NCBI GenBank assembly: GCA_963723855.1
Contig: CAVRSI010000038.1
Coordinates: 4,282-68,281, forward strand
Source: an uncultured Actinomycetes bacterium
GTDB taxonomy: Bacteria; Actinomycetota; UBA4738; HRBIN12
Direction of reading: 5' to 3'
DNA length: 64,000 nt
Under the pieces are notes generated by a model. That model worked only from the letters and a program-made list of their open reading frames with translations. It did no database searches and had not been told where the DNA came from. Numbering within the stretch: the stretch's first letter is position 1; the number at the start of each line of letters is the position of its first letter. The translations under genes and the position numbers were made by a program. Below, in pieces: positions 44,777-64,000 of this stretch.

Positions 44777-47700
44777 TTACCGGGCTTCGACCTCGGCGAT
44801 GCGAGCGCTGAGTGTGTGCAGACGGACCAGCACACCCTTGCGTTCGAAGAGATCCAGAGCGATATGAAGATGCTCGAGTCCTTCGTCGCGTTCATCCTTC
44901 GCGATCAGGATCTCGCCCAACTCCTGATGCGAAGCACCTTTCTCATAGAGGTAGTCGGTCGTTTCCCCGGCCGCGATCGCCTCCCGCGCGTACGGCTCGG
45001 CTTCGTCGAGGCGTCCCTGCCGTCGCATGATCTTCGCGCGGATACGTCGGATCCCGATCACCGTCACGGCGTCGTCCACGGCCGCCTGCTCCTCGGCTTC
45101 CCTCAGCGTCGTCTCTGCTTCGTCGGGCCGACCCTGCGACACGATCGCGTCGGCGAGATAGATCAACGAAGTGGAGAGGTACCCACGCTCTCCCATGTCA
45201 CGAAGCTGCTCGATGCCTTCCCTCGCTACCCGCTCCGTCTCCGCGTAGCGCTCGAGCAATAGCCCGGCCTCGAGGTATGCATGAGCCGCCGCGAGATGCA
45301 GACGCTCTCCGAGCTCACGGGCGCGCGTCACGGAGATCGAGAACCTCTCGTCCGCGAGGTCGGTCTCACCCCGCATCGCATGAGCGACCGCGAGCGACTG
45401 ACTGAGCTCGTACGAGGAGCTCCCCAGCGTCTCGATCTCCGCGATGAGCTCGCTCGCCCTCGTCACCACCTCATCAGCGGGAACCGGTCCCCAGACGAAT
45501 GGGCCGAGCAATTCGTTGGACGTGATCCGCATGAGCCGCTCGGATCCGGCGCGCTCGGCATGCACGTGCGCACGTTCGAGAGCTTCCAGGGACCCTGCAC
45601 CGTCGCCGAGCCAGAATCGGAACGCGCCTACGACCGCCCACCCCTCGGCTAAACCCAGGTCATCGCCCTCGGCGGCGAGCGGCGCCATCCGGCTCTCGAC
45701 CTCCGCCAATGCCGGCCGCATCGCGAACTCCGGGTCGAGGTGGTTCAGCAGCAAGGTTCGTTGGATCGCGACGCGCGCGACCACCGTGTCGGCGCCTGCA
45801 TCCGCCGCCCGGACGGACGCTCCCTCGAGGAACTCGAGCGCTCGTTCGAGCTGACCGCCGTAATACAGCGCCTGTCCGAGGGACGGCAGCGCCGAGAGGG
45901 CGCGGGGGTCGTCGGCGGGCAGCAGCTCCATCGCGCGGCGCAGGAGCCGTTCGGCTGCCGCGACGTCGCCCCGTCCCAGCGCACGCTCTCCGGCCGCGAG
46001 TAGATGCGTGCCCGCACGGGCGGCGATCGCGCGTCCGGCGTCGTCGACGGGACCGAGCTCTTCCCGGTACCGGTACGACTGCTCGAGGTGATAGCCCACG
46101 AACTCATCCAGCTCCCCAGCTGACCGGGCTTCGCGCCCGAGCCAACCCGCGAACCCCTCGTGCAACGCTGCGCGGAGTTCCTTCGGTATCGCGTCATACA
46201 CGGCATCCCGGACCAGCAGATGCCGGAACCGATACGAGTCTTCTTCGCCGAGGTCTCCACGATCCGGGCGGATCAGGTCCTTCCGAAGGAGGGCCCTGAT
46301 CCCGTCGTTGACCTTGCCGGATTGCTCGTCGCTCACGAGGGATCTGATCGAGGAGCCTGCGAACACCTTTCCGATGATCGCGGCGCACTCCAGTACCACG
46401 CGCTCGATCGGGGCCAATCGGTCGAGCCGGGCCGCGATCAATGCATGGACCGTGGGTGGCACCTTCACTTCCGACAGATCACCGGCAGCGATCCATCGGT
46501 GGTCCTCTCGCACGAGATACCCATCGTCGATCAGCATCGCGACCATCTCTTCGACGAACAGGGGGTTGCCTTCGGCGGCCTCGGCCACGCGCGCCGACAC
46601 CTCGCCGGCGACCTCCGAGTCACCGATCAGATCGGCGACGAGCTCCACCGTCTCGGCTCGCGTCAACGGCTCCAACAGGATCGAGGTCGCGTTCGCGACG
46701 CCGCCACCCCAGCCGGGCCGGTCATCTCGAAGCTCGGGCCGCGCCTGCGCGAGGACCAGGATCGGGGCGTCCCGGGACCACTCGGCGACGTGCTCCACGA
46801 GATCGAGGAACGTCGACTCGGCCCACTGGAGATCGTCGAGGAGCAGGAGGAGCGGTCGATCGGCGGCCAGGATCTCGAGGAATCGCCGCAGCGCCCAGAA
46901 CGATTCCTCGACAGGCGCTTGCGTCTCCGAGAGGCCGACGAGGCACGCCACGAGGTCGGCGACACGCTCCGAGCGCTCTCCCGGCCCGATCACGTCGAGC
47001 AGTTTCCTCTGCGCGTCCCCGGGATGGTCCAGGATCGAGAGCCCGGCCGCTTGACCCACGAGCTCGACGACCGGCCAGAACGTGATGCCTTCGCCGTAGG
47101 CGAGGCATCGTCCACGGAGGACGGTCGCGTCCGCATCGACCTGGGCGGCGAACTCCTCCACCAGCCGCGTCTTTCCGGCACCTGCCGTTCCCACGATCGT
47201 GAAGAGCTGACAGGCGCGATCCGTCGTTACGCGCTCGAACGCTTGTCCGAGCAGCGCCAACTCGCGGTCACGACCGACCATCGGCGCGTCCAGTCGGCGG
47301 GTGTGTCCGACGGCACCGGCCGTGACGTCCTCGAGTCGATACGCGGAGATCGGCTCCGCCTTCCCTTTCGCCGCGATCGGATCCGCCGGCTCCGCCCTGA
47401 CCGCGTCGCGTGTCAGGCGATAGGTCTCTTCACCGATCAGGATCTCGCCAGGAGCGGCCGCCTGCTCCAAGCGGGCTGCGGTGTTGACGGCATCCCCGGT
47501 CACGAGCGCTTGCCCGGTCGTTGGATCGCCCGCGACGACCTCGCCGGTGTTCACGCCGATCCTCGAGGCGAGCGTGACGCCGTGATCGCGCTCCAGCTCC
47601 TTGTTGAGGTCGAGCAACCCCTCTCGCATCTCCACCGCAGCCCTGGCCGCGCGCAGAGCGTCGTCCTCGTGCACATGAGGGATCCCGAACACTGCCATCA

Positions 47701-47968
47701 CCGCATCCCCGATGAACTTCTCCACGGTGCCGCCGTGATGCTCGATCGCGATCTTCATGGTGTCGAAGTAGCGAGTCATCACGCGCCGGAGGGCCTCCGG
47801 GTCGAGCAGTTCGCCAAGCGCCGTCGAGCCGGTGACATCACAGAAGACGACGGTGACGGACTTGCGGACCTCGTGGCTCCGTGCCGGCTCGGCCAGCGGC
47901 GAGGCGCACGCCATGCAGAAGCGAGCTTCGTCGGGGCTCTCGGCGCCGCAGCTGGGGCAGACCCGCAT
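44777..47968 (-). CDS. zinc-ribbon / class III adenylate-guanylate cyclase / AAA(STAND) ATPase / TPR signalling protein
   Basis: Intact 1063-aa ORF. CPSCGAESPDEARFCMAC, FCDVTGST, EKFIGDAVMAVFG, GDAVNTAARLE and Walker A GTAGAGKT are present, followed by a long TPR-like C-terminus. Confidence 0.9.
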   Translation of the reverse strand: MRVCPSCGAESPDEARFCMACASPLAEPARSHEVRKSVTVVFCDVTGSTALGELLDPEALRRVMTRYFDTMKIAIEHHGGTVEKFIGDAVMAVFGIPHVHEDDALRAARAAVEMREGLLDLNKELERDHGVTLASRIGVNTGEVVAGDPTTGQALVTGDAVNTAARLEQAAAPGEILIGEETYRLTRDAVRAEPADPIAAKGKAEPISAYRLEDVTAGAVGHTRRLDAPMVGRDRELALLGQAFERVTTDRACQLFTIVGTAGAGKTRLVEEFAAQVDADATVLRGRCLAYGEGITFWPVVELVGQAAGLSILDHPGDAQRKLLDVIGPGERSERVADLVACLVGLSETQAPVEESFWALRRFLEILAADRPLLLLLDDLQWAESTFLDLVEHVAEWSRDAPILVLAQARPELRDDRPGWGGGVANATSILLEPLTRAETVELVADLIGDSEVAGEVSARVAEAAEGNPLFVEEMVAMLIDDGYLVREDHRWIAAGDLSEVKVPPTVHALIAARLDRLAPIERVVLECAAIIGKVFAGSSIRSLVSDEQSGKVNDGIRALLRKDLIRPDRGDLGEEDSYRFRHLLVRDAVYDAIPKELRAALHEGFAGWLGREARSAGELDEFVGYHLEQSYRYREELGPVDDAGRAIAARAGTHLLAAGERALGRGDVAAAERLLRRAMELLPADDPRALSALPSLGQALYYGGQLERALEFLEGASVRAADAGADTVVARVAIQRTLLLNHLDPEFAMRPALAEVESRMAPLAAEGDDLGLAEGWAVVGAFRFWLGDGAGSLEALERAHVHAERAGSERLMRITSNELLGPFVWGPVPADEVVTRASELIAEIETLGSSSYELSQSLAVAHAMRGETDLADERFSISVTRARELGERLHLAAAHAYLEAGLLLERYAETERVAREGIEQLRDMGERGYLSTSLIYLADAIVSQGRPDEAETTLREAEEQAAVDDAVTVIGIRRIRAKIMRRQGRLDEAEPYAREAIAAGETTDYLYEKGASHQELGEILIAKDERDEGLEHLHIALDLFERKGVLVRLHTLSARIAEVEAR

Positions 47969-47977
47969 GCCGCGAGT

Positions 47978-49370
47978 CTAGGCCGGGCCGAGCTGGGCGA
48001 GCGCGTCGTACGCGGCGTACTTGAAGGTCTCGCCGAGCGTCGGGTGGTTGAAGACCATCTCGATGAACGTCTCGACCGTGCCGTTCAACACGATGATCGC
48101 CTGCCCCACGTGCACGAGCTCGGACGCGCGTTCGCCGATGCAGTGGCAGCCGATCAGCCGGCGCGACCAACGGTCGAACACGAGCTTCACCATGCCGTCG
48201 CGGTCGTTCATGATCTGTCCGCGGACGTTGTCGCGGTAGAAGGCTCGCCCCGCCACCACGTCGAGCCCCCGGCGCGCCGCCTCCTCCTCACTCAGGCCGA
48301 CGCAGCTCACCTCCGGGATCGTGTACACGCCGTACGGCAGGACGTCGGACACCTGCCGTTTGTACGTGAACCCGAACGCGTGGCACACCGCGACCCGGCC
48401 CTGCTCCATGGAGACGCTCGCGAGCGCGGGGAAGCCGACGACGTCACCGGCCGCGTAGATGCTCGGGACCGCGGTGCGGAAGTCCTCGTCGACCTTGACG
48501 TTTCCTCGCGCGTCCACCTCGACCCCGATCGAGGCGAGCCCGAGGCCATCGGTGTTGCCCTGACGGCCGGCCGCCACCATCACCGTCTCCACCACGAGCG
48601 GCTCGCCCGTCGAGAGCGTGCACGTCGAGTCCATCGGCTCCACGCACGACGTGCTCGAACGTCCGCTCCAGGTGGAGGGTGACACCGAGCGCCCGCATCG
48701 CGTCCGCGAGCCGCTCGCCCATCTCGAGATCGAGGAACGGGAGCAGGCCGGGGCGCGGGTCGATCAGATGCACCTGCACGCCGAGCGCCGCGAACATGCA
48801 CGCGTACTCGCAACCGATGACGCCGCCGCCGATCACCGCCATCGACCGCGGGAGCCGATGGATGCGAAGGATCCCGTCGGCGTCGTGGACGTCGTCGTCG
48901 CCGTAGGGGATGCCGGGCGGGCGGTACGGAGACGACCCGGTCGCGATCAGGACCACCGCGGCGTGGACCTGCATCACGCCGTCCGACGACGTCACCTCGA
49001 CGGTATGCGCATCCACGAGCCGTCCCTCGCCCCGCAGCAGATCGATCCCGTGCCGTTCCAGGTTCGTGTGGATCCGATCGACCTCCAGGTGGCGGACCGC
49101 GTCCTTGCGATCGAGGAGCCTCGTGACCGTGAGCTCCGGATCAAGGTCGACCAACACGCCGTCGAGCTGCCGCTGTCGGTAGCCCGACAGGAACAGCGCG
49201 GTCTCGCGCAGCGTCTTGGAGGGCAGCGTGCCCGTGTGGACGGCGGCGCCCCCGGGCTCGGGTTGCCGTTCGACGATCGCGACGCGCTTGCCGAAATAGG
49301 CGGCCTGCGCGGCGCCCCGCTCTCCGGCGGGACCGCCGCCGATCACCACCAGGTCGTACTCGCCGCTCAC
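47978..49370 (-). pseudogene. sthA: Si-specific NAD(P)+ transhydrogenase SthA-like flavoprotein, one frame break
   Basis: GTG at 49370 overlaps the upstream stop (GTGA). YDLVVIGGGPAGERGAAQAAYFGKRVAIVE...GGAAVHTGTLPSKTLRE has no redox-active CxxxxC. After ...LERTFEHVV the text continues in ORF 47978..48685 (VEPMDSTCTL...IYAAGDV...HPTLGE). The break lies near 48643. Confidence 0.8.
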
Positions 49371-50101
49371 TCCCAGTCGACCGTCACGATCTCGATCGGC
49401 TCGGACGTGCCCCGCAGGGTCACGGTCCGTGGCTCCGAGATGGGATAGCGGCCGTCCGCGGCGGTGGCCCGGCTCGCCACGATCTGGTCGCCGTCCGCGA
49501 GCGCGGCGATCCGCGCGGCTTCGTGAACGCCCTTGCCCGAGAAGTCCCGCCCGACCTGCGTGGCGCCCGACGCGTGCAGCCCGATCCGCACCTTCGGCGC
49601 GAAGCCCGCCGAGCGCCGGTGCTCGGTTAGCCGGCGCTGGATCGCGACGGCGCACGCGAGCGCCTCATCCGGGGAGTCGAACCCCACGAAGAACCCGTCG
49701 CCTGTAGAGACGACCTCCTCGCCCTTGTGCTCGGCGAACAGCGACCGCAGCGCTTCGTTGTGCCACCGAAGCACGCCCTGCCAGACCTCGTCGCCGAGCG
49801 CGTCGACCAGGTTGGTCGAGCTCTCGATGTCGGTGAACATGAACGTCTTCTCGACGCGACGGGGGCCCTCCTTGCCGCGGAGCTGCCACGGCAGCAGCTC
49901 CTCGACGTCCTCGATCGTGATCGCACCGGTCGGACAGGCCAGCGCGGCCTCCCGCAGCACCTCGTCGTCGACGCTCGCCGCATCCACCACGCCGGCCTTC
50001 GCGAAGTCGCCCTTGTACCAGTCGAACGCGGTGGGCGCGATCGTGATGCACGTCCCGGCGCCGACGCACCGGTGCCGGTCCACCCGCGGCCGGAGCGTCA
50101 T
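49367..50101 (-). CDS. ferredoxin (CxxAxxC...CP, 3Fe-4S-type) fused to a class III nucleotidyl-cyclase domain
   Basis: Inner ATG at 50101. The N-terminus reads VDRHRCVGAGTCITIAPTAF...ACPTGAITIE. The cyclase domain reads KTFMFTDIESST...VVSTGDGFFVGF...GKGVHEAARIA. Confidence 0.8.
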   Translation of the reverse strand: MTLRPRVDRHRCVGAGTCITIAPTAFDWYKGDFAKAGVVDAASVDDEVLREAALACPTGAITIEDVEELLPWQLRGKEGPRRVEKTFMFTDIESSTNLVDALGDEVWQGVLRWHNEALRSLFAEHKGEEVVSTGDGFFVGFDSPDEALACAVAIQRRLTEHRRSAGFAPKVRIGLHASGATQVGRDFSGKGVHEAARIAALADGDQIVASRATAADGRYPISEPRTVTLRGTSEPIEIVTVDWE

Positions 50102-50117: not shown

Positions 50118-53100
50118 TCACAGGACCCGCTCCCGGAACGCGAACGCGGTGGCGTCCGCGCGCGACGACGCGCCGATCGACGCGAAGAGCTGACCGAGCC
50201 GTCGCTCGACGGCCGGCTCGTCGATCCCGAGCTCGCCGGCGATCTCGGCGTTCGTCTTGCCCTGGACGAGGCTCTGCAGCAGCAGCGAATCGCCGTCGGC
50301 GGGCGCACCGCCGTCGCCGCCGGACGCCGTGATCGCGTCGATGGGCCCGGCGAGCGCGACCATCTCGCTGCCGAGCGGTCCCCGGAGCCAGCGGACCCGC
50401 ACGTCCTCGTCGATCGTGCGCTGCGCGACCATGGCGAGCGAGACCTGGACGTACGGGCGCACGCCCTCCTCCCACTCGGGAGCGCCGGTCTCCATCAGGA
50501 CCCGCGCGCACGGCAGCAGGACCTCGAGGTGCAGGTCCTCGTGCATCGCGGCCTGGAGCGCGCCCGCCGCGCCGCGTGCGAACGTCATCGCTTCCTCGGC
50601 CTGGCCGCGGGCGAGTGCGACGCTCGCCCGCGCTGCGTCGGCCTGCGCGCCCCACGGGGAGTGGCCGGGGAGCGTCGCGGACAGCTCCGACGCCTCCATC
50701 GCCGACCGGTCGGCCAACGCCATCAGCTCCTCGTCGCCGAGCCGCACCCCCAGCCGCGCGGACTCGATCGCGAGGCGAGCGAGCGCCTCGCATCGTGCGG
50801 CGGGCAGGCCCGAGTCGGTCGCCTGCTGCACGGCACGCTCCAGATGTGTGCGCAAACCTGCGGCATCGCCCGCCGCTCCATCCGCGATCCCCCTCCAGGT
50901 CTCCAGCCGGCGCGCGCGGAGCGGACTCGGATGCTCGGTGGCGACCATGGCGGCGCGATCGATCCATGCCCGTGCCTCGTCGACATCGCCGAGGTCGAGG
51001 ACGGCCATCGCGGTCCCTCCGGCAGCCAGGAACTCGAGGTTCGGATCGCCGATCTCCTTCGCGTACCGGTGGGCCTCCCGCCCCTTCGCGAGCGCCAGGT
51101 CGGGGATCACCTTCGCACGCCCGAACACGTGCGAGCCGTAAAGCATCTGCGCCTCGAACGCCGCGCGCTCGCTCTCGTTCGTGAACGCCTTCATCCGGGA
51201 GGTGAGCCGGCGGATCTCCTCGATGTGCCGGGCCGCGCTCGTACCGAAGTGGATGTCGGCAGCCCAGTTCAGGTAGGCGAGCGCGATGATCGTGGACATC
51301 GCGCCGCGCCGGTCCCCGAGCTGGTCGAAGAGCTCGAGCGCATGGTGGAGGAGCCCGAACGTCTCCATGAACACCGGCGCGATCGGCAGCTCCGGCATGA
51401 TGTCCTCCAGGACCTCGCCCGCCGCCACTCGTTGCACGAGCGGCAGGTGCAGGCCGAGCTCGAGCTGCTCGATGAACCAGGCGCGAACCCGGCCGAGCTG
51501 GATGACCCCGAGCTCACGGCTGGCGGCCGCCTCGGCGCCCACGTCGCCGAGCTCGTGCGCCAGCTCCTTCGCGCGACGGAACGCCTCGTCGCACGCATCC
51601 AGGTCGACCTCTTTCGCCGCCGGGGTGTAGGACTCGCCCGCCGTCGCATGCATGACGTCCTGACCGAGCTCCATGCAGGCGGCGAGCTCGCCCTCGCGGT
51701 CGCCCCGCTCCACGGCCATATCCCGCACCTCGCGCGCGAGCTCTGCCGCGCGATCGTGTTCCTCGGCGGTCCGCATGGCCGCCGCTCGGCGCAGCCGCAC
51801 GTCGATCCCCAGGCGCGTGTCGCCGAGCGCCTCGGCCAGCGCGGCCAGCTCGGCGAGCCCCTGCATCCGGTCCCCCGGCCGCCGCAGCATGTCGAGCGCC
51901 CGGTCACGCGCGTCGAGGAGCCCCACGCGCTGCTCCGGCGTCGAGGCCGATGGCAGCGCCAGCTCGACCACGCGCAAGACCTCCTCCGGCGCGTTGGCGG
52001 CGAGCGCGTTCCGGCTCGCCTCGACCGAGAACCGGACGCACACGGCCCCGTCCCCCGCCGACTTCGCGTGACGGGCGATCAGGGGCAGGCTGGCGGCCGA
52101 GGGCTCGCCGGACATCAGCAGCGCGACGATCGCCGCATGGATCGCCCGGCGCGCGGCCGACGTGAGCGTCGCGGCCGCGAACTCGCGGACCTGCTCGTGC
52201 TGGAAGCTGTAGTCGGCGGCCGAGGCCTCCTCGTGCTCGATCAACAGCCCCGCCGTGACGGCCGGCGCCAGGGTCTCGGCGAGCTCCTCCGGCTCGGGCG
52301 CCGACCCGTCCACGCGGAGCTGGATCTCCCGCAGGTCCTTCAGGCTGAACCGCCTGCCCAGGATCGCCGCGACGGCCAGCAACGCCTTCGTCGGCTCGGG
52401 CAGCTTCGTCGCCCGCCGCGAGATCAGCGTCTTCACCGCGGACGGCACCAGCCGCTCGGCGTTGCCGGCCAGCGTCCAGACACCGTCGATCTCCTGGATC
52501 ATCCCGTTCTCGCGGTAGGTGAACGCCATCTCCTCGACGATGAACGGGACGCCTTCGGCCTGCGCGTGCATGACCGCCGCGCCGGACGCGTCGACCGGAC
52601 CGCCGAGCACCTGCGCCAGGAACTCGCGCGTCGCCGCCGGCGAGAAGCGTTCGAGCTTCAGGCGGCGGACGACGCCCATGCGGCCCATGTCGGCGACCAG
52701 GTTCACGGCCTCGTTGACGACCGCGAACTCCTCGGGACGGATCGCGAACATCAGGAAGATCGGGCTCGCGCCGTCGGTTCGGATCACGTAGCGCAACAGA
52801 CGGAGGCTGTCCTCGTCCGACCACTGGAGGTCGTCGACGAGGATCGCGAGCGGCCGCTCGGCGGCGAGGGCACGGAACGCGACCGCGCCCAGATCGAACG
52901 TCCGGAGCAGCCGGCTGTCGGGAGCGAGCGTGGCGAGCCCGGGGTCGTCCTGGCCCGACATCGAGTCCAGGCATCGGGCGATCGCCTCGGCGGCCTGGGG
53001 GCCGGCCGCACTGAAGGCCTCGGGCGAACCGAGGATCGAGCGGGCGACCAGGAACGGGCCGCGGAGCTCCTCGTCGGCCGTGACGGCGATCGCGGTGAAG

Positions 53101-53378
53101 CCGTCGGCCGTCGCCCGCTCGGCCGCGGCGACGAGCAGCCGCGTCTTGCCGATCCCGGGCTCACCCTCCACGGTGAGACCGACGAGCCGGCCGGCGCCGG
53201 CCGTCGCGAGCTCCTGGGCGATCGACTGGAGCTCGGCCGATCTCCCGACCACGTCGCCGGTCGCCCGGTGAACGTCGAGTGCCATCGGCGAGAACGGCAG
53301 CGGTTGGTCGTCGTCCGTGATCACGTGGTCTCCGGAAGGTCGGGATGTGAGGGTAGCCCGGACCCGGCGCTCCGGCAC
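50118..53378 (-). CDS. LAL-type (large ATP-binding) LuxR family transcriptional regulator
   Basis: 1086-aa ORF with Walker A GEPGIGKTRLL, a long TPR-like middle and a C-terminal LuxR HTH (GKTNAEIAGELGIDEPAVERRLGQLFASIG). An alternative start is ATG 53285 (MALDVHR). Confidence 0.85.
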   Translation of the reverse strand: MPERRVRATLTSRPSGDHVITDDDQPLPFSPMALDVHRATGDVVGRSAELQSIAQELATAGAGRLVGLTVEGEPGIGKTRLLVAAAERATADGFTAIAVTADEELRGPFLVARSILGSPEAFSAAGPQAAEAIARCLDSMSGQDDPGLATLAPDSRLLRTFDLGAVAFRALAAERPLAILVDDLQWSDEDSLRLLRYVIRTDGASPIFLMFAIRPEEFAVVNEAVNLVADMGRMGVVRRLKLERFSPAATREFLAQVLGGPVDASGAAVMHAQAEGVPFIVEEMAFTYRENGMIQEIDGVWTLAGNAERLVPSAVKTLISRRATKLPEPTKALLAVAAILGRRFSLKDLREIQLRVDGSAPEPEELAETLAPAVTAGLLIEHEEASAADYSFQHEQVREFAAATLTSAARRAIHAAIVALLMSGEPSAASLPLIARHAKSAGDGAVCVRFSVEASRNALAANAPEEVLRVVELALPSASTPEQRVGLLDARDRALDMLRRPGDRMQGLAELAALAEALGDTRLGIDVRLRRAAAMRTAEEHDRAAELAREVRDMAVERGDREGELAACMELGQDVMHATAGESYTPAAKEVDLDACDEAFRRAKELAHELGDVGAEAAASRELGVIQLGRVRAWFIEQLELGLHLPLVQRVAAGEVLEDIMPELPIAPVFMETFGLLHHALELFDQLGDRRGAMSTIIALAYLNWAADIHFGTSAARHIEEIRRLTSRMKAFTNESERAAFEAQMLYGSHVFGRAKVIPDLALAKGREAHRYAKEIGDPNLEFLAAGGTAMAVLDLGDVDEARAWIDRAAMVATEHPSPLRARRLETWRGIADGAAGDAAGLRTHLERAVQQATDSGLPAARCEALARLAIESARLGVRLGDEELMALADRSAMEASELSATLPGHSPWGAQADAARASVALARGQAEEAMTFARGAAGALQAAMHEDLHLEVLLPCARVLMETGAPEWEEGVRPYVQVSLAMVAQRTIDEDVRVRWLRGPLGSEMVALAGPIDAITASGGDGGAPADGDSLLLQSLVQGKTNAEIAGELGIDEPAVERRLGQLFASIGASSRADATAFAFRERVL

Positions 53379-61939: not shown

Positions 61940-64000
61940 TTGGCCGAGGTGCGACGATCCGAGCGGGTGCTGGCCTCGGTCACCGCCGGCGTGTTGATCG
62001 GCGTCGTCGAGGTCGTCCTCGCGATCTCGTTCGCCGCTCTGGTGTACGGCGGCTACCTGGCGCAGTTCCTGCCGGACGGCATCGGCCTGTTCCTGGTGGC
62101 AGCCGCGATCTCGCTCGCGATCCTCGCGTGGAGGTCGGGCTCTCGCGGCGTGGTGGGCGGCGTGCAAGCCGCGGTGGTCGCCGTGCTCGCCATCGTCGCC
62201 ACGACCACCGCGCAGCACACGTTCGGGAGCTCCAACCGGGCCTTCGTCACCGTCGTCGCGGCGACCATGGTCGTGACGATCCTGACGGGCATCACGTTCC
62301 TGGTGATGGGCACGTTCAAGCGCGGCAACCTGATCCGGTTCGTCCCGTATCCGGTCGTCGGCGGCTTCCTCGCCGGTACCGGATGGCTCCTCCTGAAGGG
62401 CGGCCTGTACGTCGCCTCGGGCGTGGAGGTGCACCTCGGCACGTTCGGATCCATGGCGGAGCGGGAGACGCTCACGCACTGGCTCCCCGCCCTCGTGTTC
62501 GGCGTGATCATGTTCCTCGCCGTCCGGCTGGTGAAGGCGCCGCTGGTCATCCCGATCGTGCTCGCGGCCGGGCTCGCGCTGTTCGCGATCGGCATGCTCG
62601 TGACCGGCTCCTCGATCGACGATGCGCGAACGGGCCTCTGGATGGTCGGACCGTACCGATCCGGTTGGCTCTTCCAGCCGTGGACCTACCGCGCCCTCAC
62701 CGACTGCCGACTGGTGGGCGGTGCTCGGGCAGGCCGCAGGCATCGCCACCGTGATGCTCGTCGCCGTGATCGGGGTCCTGTTCAACGTCAGTGGCACCGA
62801 GCTCGTGCTGCGCCGCGACCTCGACACGGATGAAGAGCTCCGCAACGCCGGTCTCCTCAACGTCGTCTCCGGCGCGTTCGGCGGTGTCCCGGGGTATCAC
62901 TCGCTGAGCATGACGGCCCTCGCGGAGCGCATGAACGTCAACGCGCGGGCCGCGGGACTCATCGCTGCGCTCGTCCCGCTCGCCGCCCTCGTGTTCGGCG
63001 CGGCCATGATCGAGCTGATCCCGCGCGTGATCGTCGGGGGCGTGCTGGTCTTCCTCGGCGCTGTCGTTCATCGTCGATTGGGTTTGGGACAAGCGGAGGA
63101 CGCTCCCGAAGGTCGAGTACGTCGTCGTCCTGGTGATCCTGGCGGGGATCATCGTCAAGGGGTTCCTCCCCGGCGTGGTGATCGGCTTGATCATGGCCGT
63201 CGTCCTGTTCGCGGTCAGCTACGGGCGGATCGAACTGGTGCACGAGGTCGCGTTCGGCGACGTCCTCCGCAGCAACGTCGACCGCCCGCCCACCGAACGA
63301 GCCGCCTTGCGGACGATGGGCGAGCGGGTGCAGATCCTGCGCGTGCGCGGGTTCGTGTTCTTCGGATCGGCCAGCGGCCTGCTCGAGCGGATCCACGAGC
63401 GGGTGGAGACGGCACCTCCGCGATGCCTGCTGATGGACCTCCGGCAGGTGACGGGCGTGGACGCCTCGGCGGTGATGTCCTTCGTCAAGGTGATCAACCT
63501 GGCGGAGACGAACGGGTTCGAGCTCGTGCTCGCGGGCGCCTCGGATCCGGTGCGCCGGCAGCTCGAACGAGGCGGCGTGGTCACCTCCGAAGGGGTCGTC
63601 CGGTTCGAGCAGGATCTGGATCACGGCCTCCAGCGGTGCGAGGACGTCATCCTTGCGGAGGGCCAGGCCGAGCGGCGTCTCGGACGATCAGGGCGACGCG
63701 CTCGACGGGATGCCGCCGGGCCTTCGCGCCTACCTCGAGCGCGTGGCGCTCGAGGAGGGAGCCGTGCTGATCCGCCAGGACGAGCCGCCCGGCGACGTGT
63801 TCGTGCTGGAGTCGGGCCGGCTCCGCGTGGAGATGGTGACGCAGGAGGGCACGCGGATGCGATTGCGCACGGTGCGTCCGGGCGTCGTGGTCGGCGAGAT
63901 CGCGATGTACTCCGGCGTGTCGCGCACGGCGGACGTGGTGGCCGAGACGCCGAGCGTGGTGCTGCGGCTCAGCCGTGCGTCGATCGAGCGGATGGAGGCC
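61940..64000 (+). pseudogene. SulP-family anion transporter fused to STAS and cyclic-nucleotide-binding domains; three frame breaks; 3' end beyond window
   Basis: TTG start at 61940 follows GAAGGGGG. The TM core is split between ORF 61940..62833 and ORF 62622..63770, with a break near 62700. LSFIVDWVWDKRR...ILRVRGFVFFGSASGL...LMDLRQVTGVDASAV (STAS) is in a third phase, with a break near 63060. GAVLIRQDEPPGDVFVLESGRLRV...VVGEIAMYSGVSRTADVVA (cNMP-binding) follows a break near 63675. The frame is still open at 64000. Confidence 0.8.

Follow-up and report, generated by a model that had tools for sequence, protein, structure and literature searches.

A conserved cassette pairing a ferredoxin-class III cyclase fusion protein with a STAND/LuxR regulator in uncultured soil Actinomycetota

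Soluble class III nucleotidyl cyclases with solved structures include Ma1120 of Mycobacterium avium (PDB 4wp3, 4wp8, and 5d0e), a small protein whose N-terminal segment is short, and the cyclase domain of Rv1900c (LipJ) of Mycobacterium tuberculosis (PDB 1ybt and 1ybu), which follows an N-terminal alpha/beta-hydrolase and whose structures were deposited as those of an adenylyl cyclase bound to a substrate analogue. A second mycobacterial arrangement is that of the LAL-cyclases Rv0386, Rv1358, and Rv2488c, in which cyclase, AAA, TPR, and LuxR modules follow one another in one chain. Class III cyclases are controlled by heme, flavin, light, bicarbonate, ligands of GAF and PAS domains, and membrane anchors, and in the literature we found no described case of one under the control of an iron-sulfur (Fe-S) ferredoxin domain. 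Functional analogues are offered by the H-NOX/heme soluble guanylyl cyclase and globin-coupled cyclases, and by the Fe-S sensors FNR, WhiB-like proteins, and SoxR; in these a redox-active or gas-reactive cofactor domain controls a signaling output, although none is homologous to the protein described here, and we know of none that joins an Fe-S ferredoxin domain to a class III cyclase. Here we describe such a protein, referred to as Fd-CHD (ferredoxin and cyclase homology domain [CHD]), which is encoded in a 64,000-nucleotide stretch (the window) of contig CAVRSI010000038.1 (positions 4,282 to 68,281) from an uncultured Actinomycetes bacterium (assembly GCA_963723855.1). Fd-CHD combines a class III cyclase with an Fe-S input domain not described before, and its gene belongs to a split LAL-cyclase cassette that also encodes a STAND/LuxR regulator.

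The Fd-CHD gene (49367..50101, minus strand, stop codon included) runs from an ATG at 50101 to a TGA at 49367 and has 244 codons, with a start that is common to orthologues in other genomes, as M, V, or L. Pfam matches above the family cut-offs cover both parts of the 244-residue product, with Fer4_13 at residues 7 to 62 (E 3.2e-8, 34.6 bits; cut-off, 24.5), Fer4_15 at residues 6 to 63 (29.8 bits; cut-off, 22.4), and Guanylate_cyc (PF00211) at residues 86 to 218 (E 5.9e-8, 33 bits; cut-off, 21.9). A preliminary description of the window had proposed this fusion and suggested a search for these three families, and its open reading frame (ORF), coordinates, and both domains are borne out. The protein comprises a ferredoxin domain (residues 1 to 68; 49898..50101), a linker (residues 69 to 84; 49850..49897; LLPWQLRGK..PRRVEK), and a class III CHD (residues 85 to 244; 49370..49849) recognized by Pfam, phmmer, structural modeling, and conservation. 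It has four cysteines, three in the ferredoxin part (C12, C18, and C56) and one in the cyclase part (C150). For conservation we used 61 species-level orthologues (59 to 98% identical), a separate 64-sequence family alignment, and a wider sample of 136 representatives of the cyclase clade; gene neighborhoods were compared at 78 loci from species-representative genomes. Residues C12, A15, C18, C56, P57, D91, D135, H193, and R197 are invariant across the 61 orthologues and, as judged from these sequences, the residue pattern of Fd-CHD is not a chance one. The linker is also well conserved, with L69, L70, P71, P80, R81, R82, and V83 at least 90% conserved and invariance from K85 on.

Among solved structures, the cyclase domain is best matched in both sequence and structure by Ma1120 (phmmer, E 2.5e-22), followed by the cyclase domain of Rv1900c (E 1.3e-15; about 32% identity to Fd-CHD). 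An AlphaFold2 model built on the 64 family sequences has pLDDT values above 90 in the cyclase part, and Foldseek superposition gives TM scores of 0.90 to 0.93 to Ma1120 and 0.88 to Rv1900c, the folds being the same. The top NCBIfam match is the cyclase part of LipJ/Rv1900c, but Fd-CHD is not a LipJ equivalog (NF058673), scoring 90.2 bits against a cut-off of 800 and matching profile positions 274 to 416 only; moreover, Rv1900c has a hydrolase where Fd-CHD has a ferredoxin, and, unlike Fd-CHD, is without a paired LuxR regulator. Both metal-binding aspartates expected of a class III cyclase are present, D91 within FTDIESST (49831-49829) and D135 within GDGF (49699-49697). V131 (49711-49709) occupies the substrate-lysine position, where Ma1120 has the lysine and Rv1900c has N342, while D186 (49546-49544; the specificity-Asp position), H193 (49525-49523; the transition-state asparagine position), and R197 (49513-49511; the transition-state arginine) align with D395, H402, and R406 of Rv1900c. 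The residue register that had been drawn by eye in the preliminary description, with both metal aspartates kept, lysine replaced by Val131, and asparagine by His193, is thus reproduced in profile alignments. Conservation points to further active-site residues at R172, which is invariant both in the 64-sequence alignment and among the 136 clade relatives, and at R230-G231. G231 is invariant in the 61 orthologues; at position 230 conservation among them reaches at least 90%, and 131 of the 136 clade relatives have K or R there. D91, D135, R172, and R197 are invariant or nearly so among those relatives.

The Val and His substitutions had been taken to raise the alternative that Fd-CHD is a regulatory half-site, crippled as a homodimer and active or regulatory only when paired in a heterodimer with a canonical cyclase, for instance that encoded at 44777..47968. 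The canonical Lys and Asn are indeed absent from Fd-CHD, leaving R197 of the Asn-Arg pair next to a family-invariant H193; a canonical-looking cyclase does lie two genes downstream in the window; and there are several further cyclase-domain paralogues in the genome. However, both faces of the site are kept in one Fd-CHD chain, with D91 and D135 on one and D186, H193, R197, R172, and R230-G231 on the other, so a homodimer can form complete sites. The same pattern, a non-Lys residue together with His for Asn, is seen in Rv1900c (N342/D395/H402/R406 versus V131/D186/H193/R197 in Fd-CHD), a protein deposited as an adenylyl cyclase, and His is found at position 193 in 127 of the 136 wider-clade relatives. 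The proposed partner also fails as a general explanation, in that the 44777..47968 cyclase is in place at only two of the 78 loci (L001 and L002), those of the two closest genomes. Given that Rv1900c shares this pattern and that His is usual for the clade, not a lesion, the sequence evidence speaks against these substitutions marking a dead half-site, and we regard dependence on such a heterodimer as very unlikely. For Rv1900c, Sinha et al. reportedly found in 2005 that N342 and H402 are dispensable, and that the enzyme acts as an adenylyl cyclase, with minor guanylyl activity on the side.

The base-specifying residues are more variable. Neither canonical pair (Lys-Asp for ATP; Glu-Cys/Gly for GTP) is present in the window protein, which has V131/D186. 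Among the 61 orthologues, Lys is never seen at position 131, which holds V, S, A, T, or G instead, and position 186 is dimorphic (Asn in 40, Asp in 21), the window protein having the minority Asp form; D/G, K/D, and N/D pairs each occur commonly in the wider clade (n = 136). Ma1120 differs from Fd-CHD in having the canonical Lys-Asp pair, Ala at the H193 position, and no Fe-S domain, and Rv0386 is said to have a non-canonical specificity pair (in work of Castro et al. from 2005). Non-canonical and variable base-recognition residues, in a gene tightly coupled to that of a transcription factor (see below), might be expected of a pseudo-enzyme, whose cyclase domain binds nucleotide or dimerizes without making a cyclic nucleotide monophosphate (cNMP) and which acts as an Fe-S-dependent co-regulator of the LuxR-type regulator. 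The (near-)invariance of the metal- and phosphate-binding residues in the 61 orthologues and the 136 relatives is hard to explain without catalysis, however, and makes this account improbable. We infer that the cyclase is probably catalytically active and that its product is probably cAMP, although its preference for a base is uncertain, given a specificity pair that is Val/Asp in the window protein but Val/Asn in the majority of orthologues.

The ferredoxin domain has the motif CxxAxxC(x)37CP, formed by C12 (50068-50066), A15, C18 (50050-50048), and C56-P57 (49936-49931), and the reading of this motif in the preliminary description as a three-cysteine, 3Fe-4S-type pattern is right at the sequence level. 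In HMMER alignments C12, C18, and C56-P57 fall on the cluster ligands of single-cluster ferredoxins of solved structure, namely those of Thermotoga maritima (1rof, CIGCGVC...CP; E 1.5e-7), Pyrococcus furiosus (1siz and 2z8q, CIGDAIC...CP) and Desulfovibrio (1dax). A15 occupies the position of the second ligand, filled by Cys in the T. maritima protein and by Asp in that of P. furiosus; Ala or Gly at this position defines the [3Fe-4S] subtype, CXXA/GXXC(X)nCP being the motif of [3Fe-4S] actinobacterial ferredoxins (PMC6237146). Related three-ligand ferredoxins have been isolated in [3Fe-4S] forms and are O2 tolerant (PMC6237146). Because there are only three cysteine ligands, the Fd-CHD domain most likely holds a [3Fe-4S] cluster. 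The free-standing ferredoxins of PMC6237146 belong to the same Pfam families and share the three-Cys-plus-Ala motif followed by CP, but they are electron carriers for P450s, whereas the Fd-CHD module is covalently joined to a signaling enzyme, and neither a P450 nor a reductase is a conserved neighbor of Fd-CHD at the loci compared.

Fe-S-dependent (redox) control of cNMP synthesis would be the most economical reading of the Fd-CHD sequence. An alternative is that the cyclase is active and the ferredoxin is not a sensor, contributing a structural cluster or a docking or electron-transfer module, with cNMP synthesis controlled by the STAND regulator only. Ferredoxins of the [3Fe-4S] type that have this motif normally serve as stable carriers of electrons, cyclases of the clade do without a ferredoxin domain in the fused relatives, and in the lineage of the window Fd-CHD is translationally coupled to a gene for an SthA-like flavoprotein, a possible electron donor. 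Yet a Pfam scan finds no redox-enzyme domain in Fd-CHD that could use the electrons, the SthA-like neighbor is present at 7 loci only, and the ferredoxin motif and linker are conserved as strictly as the catalytic residues. We think a non-sensory ferredoxin unlikely.

The conserved partner of Fd-CHD, overlooked in the preliminary description, is a LAL-type STAND regulator encoded directly upstream on the same strand (50118..53324), and not the cyclase of 44777..47968. Pfam places an AAA_16 domain at regulator residues 43 to 209 (E 4e-17), with the Walker A motif GEPGIGKT, and a GerE domain at residues 1033 to 1080 (25.5 bits; cut-off, 23.5), which together give the N-terminal STAND NTPase and C-terminal LuxR/GerE helix-turn-helix (HTH) of LAL/MalT-type proteins. 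The two domains are separated by a long middle region; Pfam detects no TPR family at E<=1 in the protein, for which there is also no PDB sequence match. The Fd-CHD ATG begins 14 nt after the regulator stop codon. In tblastn comparisons of the 78 loci, essentially all of those with a full-length Fd-CHD and sufficient upstream DNA have the regulator directly upstream in the same orientation, including the Chloroflexota loci, where it is 51 to 52% identical; at nearly all loci with intact ORFs, its stop lies at most 26 nt ahead of the start of the Fd-CHD match or overlaps that match by up to 4 nt. We note that one MAG (CAVQUN01) carries two complete cassettes (L037 and L038), whose Fd-CHD proteins are 82 to 83% identical to that of the window; because both genes are present in each, the cassette can duplicate as a unit.

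Regulator and Fd-CHD are separate ORFs at all loci examined, and the one-polypeptide arrangement of the Rv0386 type (cyclase, NTPase, and HTH) occurs at none of them. Rv0386 is described as a cyclase with a terminal HTH regulator (PMC9552081). The mycobacterial LAL-cyclases thus have the same set of modules as the cassette, but with the cyclase at the regulator N-terminus, whereas here it is a separate polypeptide that follows the regulator and carries a ferredoxin domain. Two apparent regulator::Fd-CHD fusions, at L038 (1,373 aa) and L041 (1,323 aa), were rejected as open-frame artefacts of GC-rich DNA; frame analysis puts the regulator in another frame, ending 5 to 23 nt before the cyclase. 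Four gene calls joining GerE to Fd-CHD (P0123, P0125, P0132, and P0158) were likewise distrusted, as they contain frame-shifted Arg-rich stretches.

Relatives of the cyclase domain are fused to regulators. The nearest of these relatives (about 45 to 65% identity) are C-terminal domains of several types of regulator, including AAA_16-TPR-GerE-CHD proteins (P0138, P0187, and P0231), AAA_16-TPR-CHD, BTAD-AAA_16-CHD, and Trans_reg_C-BTAD-CHD proteins, and many TPR_MalT-CHD proteins of about 650 aa; the TPR families seen in fused relatives are TPR_12 or TPR_MalT. In the GerE-CHD fusions the cyclase begins 15 to 35 residues after the HTH, which is the same order as in the two-gene cassette and unlike the N-terminal cyclase of Rv0386-type proteins. 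On a maximum-likelihood tree the GerE-CHD label requires at least four changes, so the association with GerE arose or was lost repeatedly. The Fd-CHD sequences fall outside a well-supported clade of 130 other relatives, which are mostly C-terminal cyclase domains, and not inside a fusion clade, so that an origin of Fd-CHD by fission of a GerE-CHD fusion, though conceivable, gains no support from the tree.

Taken with the domain composition and synteny, these comparisons lead us to a model that we consider moderately probable, in which Fd-CHD is an active homodimeric Fe-S class III cyclase that acts with a co-transcribed LAL-type regulator and whose output is set by the state of its [3Fe-4S]-type cluster. 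Fd-CHD would be a soluble, most likely homodimeric cyclase of the same type as Rv1900c and Ma1120, encoded by the second gene of a two-gene cassette that apparently has its own promoter and whose first gene encodes a large ATP-dependent STAND/LuxR regulator. The oxidation state or integrity of the cluster would be relayed through the LLPWQLRGK linker to the cyclase dimer and would set its cNMP output. Fd-CHD may dock on the regulator, as in the relatives in which the cyclase is fused behind a LuxR HTH, and regulator oligomerization could pair two cyclase domains; alternatively, the cNMP made by Fd-CHD may serve the numerous cNMP-binding proteins that the genome encodes. A bolder form of this proposal, which we put forward only tentatively, is that Fd-CHD represents the founding family of Fe-S-gated nucleotidyl cyclases that work with the STAND/LuxR regulator as a split LAL-cyclase machine. 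The regulator would oligomerize on its own ligand and ATP and scaffold two Fd-CHD chains, and the assembled cyclase dimer would fire or stay silent according to the redox state of the [3Fe-4S] domain. In this way a single cassette would combine two inputs, a metabolic ligand and the redox state, into both a diffusible cNMP and a transcriptional output; with a Val/Asn specificity pair, the product may be something other than cAMP.

Several observations weigh against the model of a cluster-gated cyclase acting with the regulator. First, the absence of the canonical Lys and Asn, together with Asn at position 186 in 40 of the 61 orthologues, could mean low activity or an unusual product. Second, the ferredoxin part and linker have pLDDT values of only 40 to 60 in the AlphaFold2 model, such that contacts between the domains are unreadable from it. 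Third, a Pfam scan detected no cNMP-binding domain in the regulator, and no locus examined has a proven in-frame regulator::Fd-CHD fusion. Finally, the O2-stable carriers reported for this motif type argue against an FNR-like O2-labile switch (PMC6237146). Because ferredoxins with the motif are typically O2-stable one-electron carriers, we favor, by analogy, sensing of redox poise or of cluster integrity over such a switch.

The Fd-CHD family is common in uncultured soil bacteria. A word-indexed protein search returned 2,673 matches, the best 120 of which are at least 82% identical to Fd-CHD, have the same two domains, and are 238 to 252 aa long except for one 383-aa gene call; their names go no further than 'class 3 adenylate cyclase', 'ferredoxin', or '4Fe-4S domain-containing protein'. 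The architecture survey that the preliminary description had suggested shows it to be widespread in soil metagenomes, and the 78 loci are nearly all from uncultured soil Actinomycetota, with a few from Chloroflexota at 59 to 68% identity. Within the class to which the window belongs, Fd-CHD is present in 123 of 294 genomes, in 54 of the 109 high-quality genomes, and in 43 of 78 genera; all of the positive genomes lie within one order, and the gene is usually single copy. At 50% clustering there is a handful of ferredoxin-cyclase clusters, compared with thousands of relatives for the cyclase domain alone. The preliminary description would have given up its claim if the architecture proved common and already characterized: common it is, but targeted literature searches turned up no publication on a class III cyclase with a ferredoxin or other Fe-S domain, and hence none characterizing the family. 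One locus that is 91% identical and has the same regulator upstream (L008; JBLMXP010000016.1) is from a MAG titled Planctomycetaceae; it is probably a mis-binned actinobacterial contig, and not a true occurrence in Planctomycetota.

This distribution also bears on whether the cassette could be an anti-phage defense module, either a Pycsar-like cyclase or an Avs-like STAND system. The cyclase domain does give weak matches to PycC (best E 2.5e-5) and the partner is a STAND NTPase, but the PycC matches are no better than general cyclase-domain homology, PADLOC returns nothing for the regulator, and the regulator ends in a LuxR HTH. There is no effector gene and no effector-like conserved neighbor such as a Pycsar system has. 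Moreover, and unlike defense islands, the cassette usually occurs once per genome, is carried by about half of the class's high-quality genomes, and shows very strong conservation. With the null PADLOC result, the weak PycC matches, and no effector, we reject identification as a defense system, an account that appears exceedingly improbable.

Conservation points to a probable start and a putative promoter of the cassette. The listed regulator ORF (50118..53378, 1,086 codons) begins with a GTG at 53378, which is 13 nt past the stop codon of an ABC-ATPase gene. Conservation of the regulator N-terminus begins at 'PFSPMAL', and a GGAG precedes a second GTG at 53324, for which reasons the true start is probably GTG 53324 instead of GTG 53378. 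A putative cassette promoter and leader (53330..53355, minus strand) precedes it, comprising a -10-like TACCCT (53355-53350), the GGAG (53333-53330), and then GTG 53324. A TAC[CG]CT element occurs 35 to 150 nt upstream of the conserved Met codon at 37 of 56 loci, compared with 1.1% of random 115-nt windows, and GTGACC often stands ahead of it, with a spacing of some 17 to 19 nt. A scan for E. coli-type consensus promoters found none in the cassette, and the element looks like a putative high-GC sigma-A-type promoter.

Downstream of Fd-CHD the genes differ from lineage to lineage, and neither a flavoprotein nor a second cyclase qualifies as a conserved downstream partner. In the window, the SthA-like flavoprotein gene (47978..49370, minus strand; Si-specific NAD(P)+ transhydrogenase family) has a GTG start that overlaps the Fd-CHD stop codon (GTGA). 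Its frame is split near 48627-48630 by one extra base relative to the intact genes of L001, L002, and L004, and it is either a pseudogene or the product of an assembly indel. Each of the two pieces is recognized by NCBIfam PRK05249 (244.6 and 274.3 bits). The 383-aa gene call mentioned above (P0013; 99% identical over residues 1 to 220) joins Fd-CHD to an SthA-like N-terminus by a frame change near residue 220, and junction indel errors or variants thus recur in assemblies of this lineage. The SthA-like gene is downstream of Fd-CHD only at L001, L002, L004, L005, L007, L034, and L059, and it is outside the conserved unit. Its overlap with Fd-CHD hints that NAD(P)H-linked reduction could set the cluster state in those lineages. 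The next gene (44777..47968, minus strand) codes for a 1,063-aa protein with Zn-ribbon, CHD, AAA_16, and TPR domains and without an HTH; its cyclase has canonical metal Asp, Lys, and Asn-Arg motifs and apparently a Leu at the specificity-Asp position.

The genome of the window, a 3.3-Mb MAG that is 76% complete, has one copy of Fd-CHD and 20 matches to cNMP_binding; with at least five cyclase-domain genes, its cNMP signaling repertoire is unusually dense. One cNMP-binding gene is at the far end of the window (about 63743-63994, plus strand; C38:68024-68275). The closest cyclase-domain paralogue of Fd-CHD (L080; G000:C30:223143-224003) is 53% identical and forms the C-terminus of a 677-aa open frame, which is about 90 nt from a divergent 989-aa open frame with a cNMP_binding domain; the two could be a local producer-reader pair.

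Fd-CHD is short (244 aa), soluble, and strongly conserved, and should be straightforward to express and assay. The pairing with the regulator and the repeated fusions in relatives bear on the role of cyclase domains in Rv0386-like STAND proteins. The composition of the cassette suggests a path from cellular redox state to second-messenger signaling and gene control. If the cluster gates activity, this would add a direct redox-to-cNMP input to bacterial second-messenger signaling, and would provide a function for a widespread cassette of organisms that are not yet cultured.

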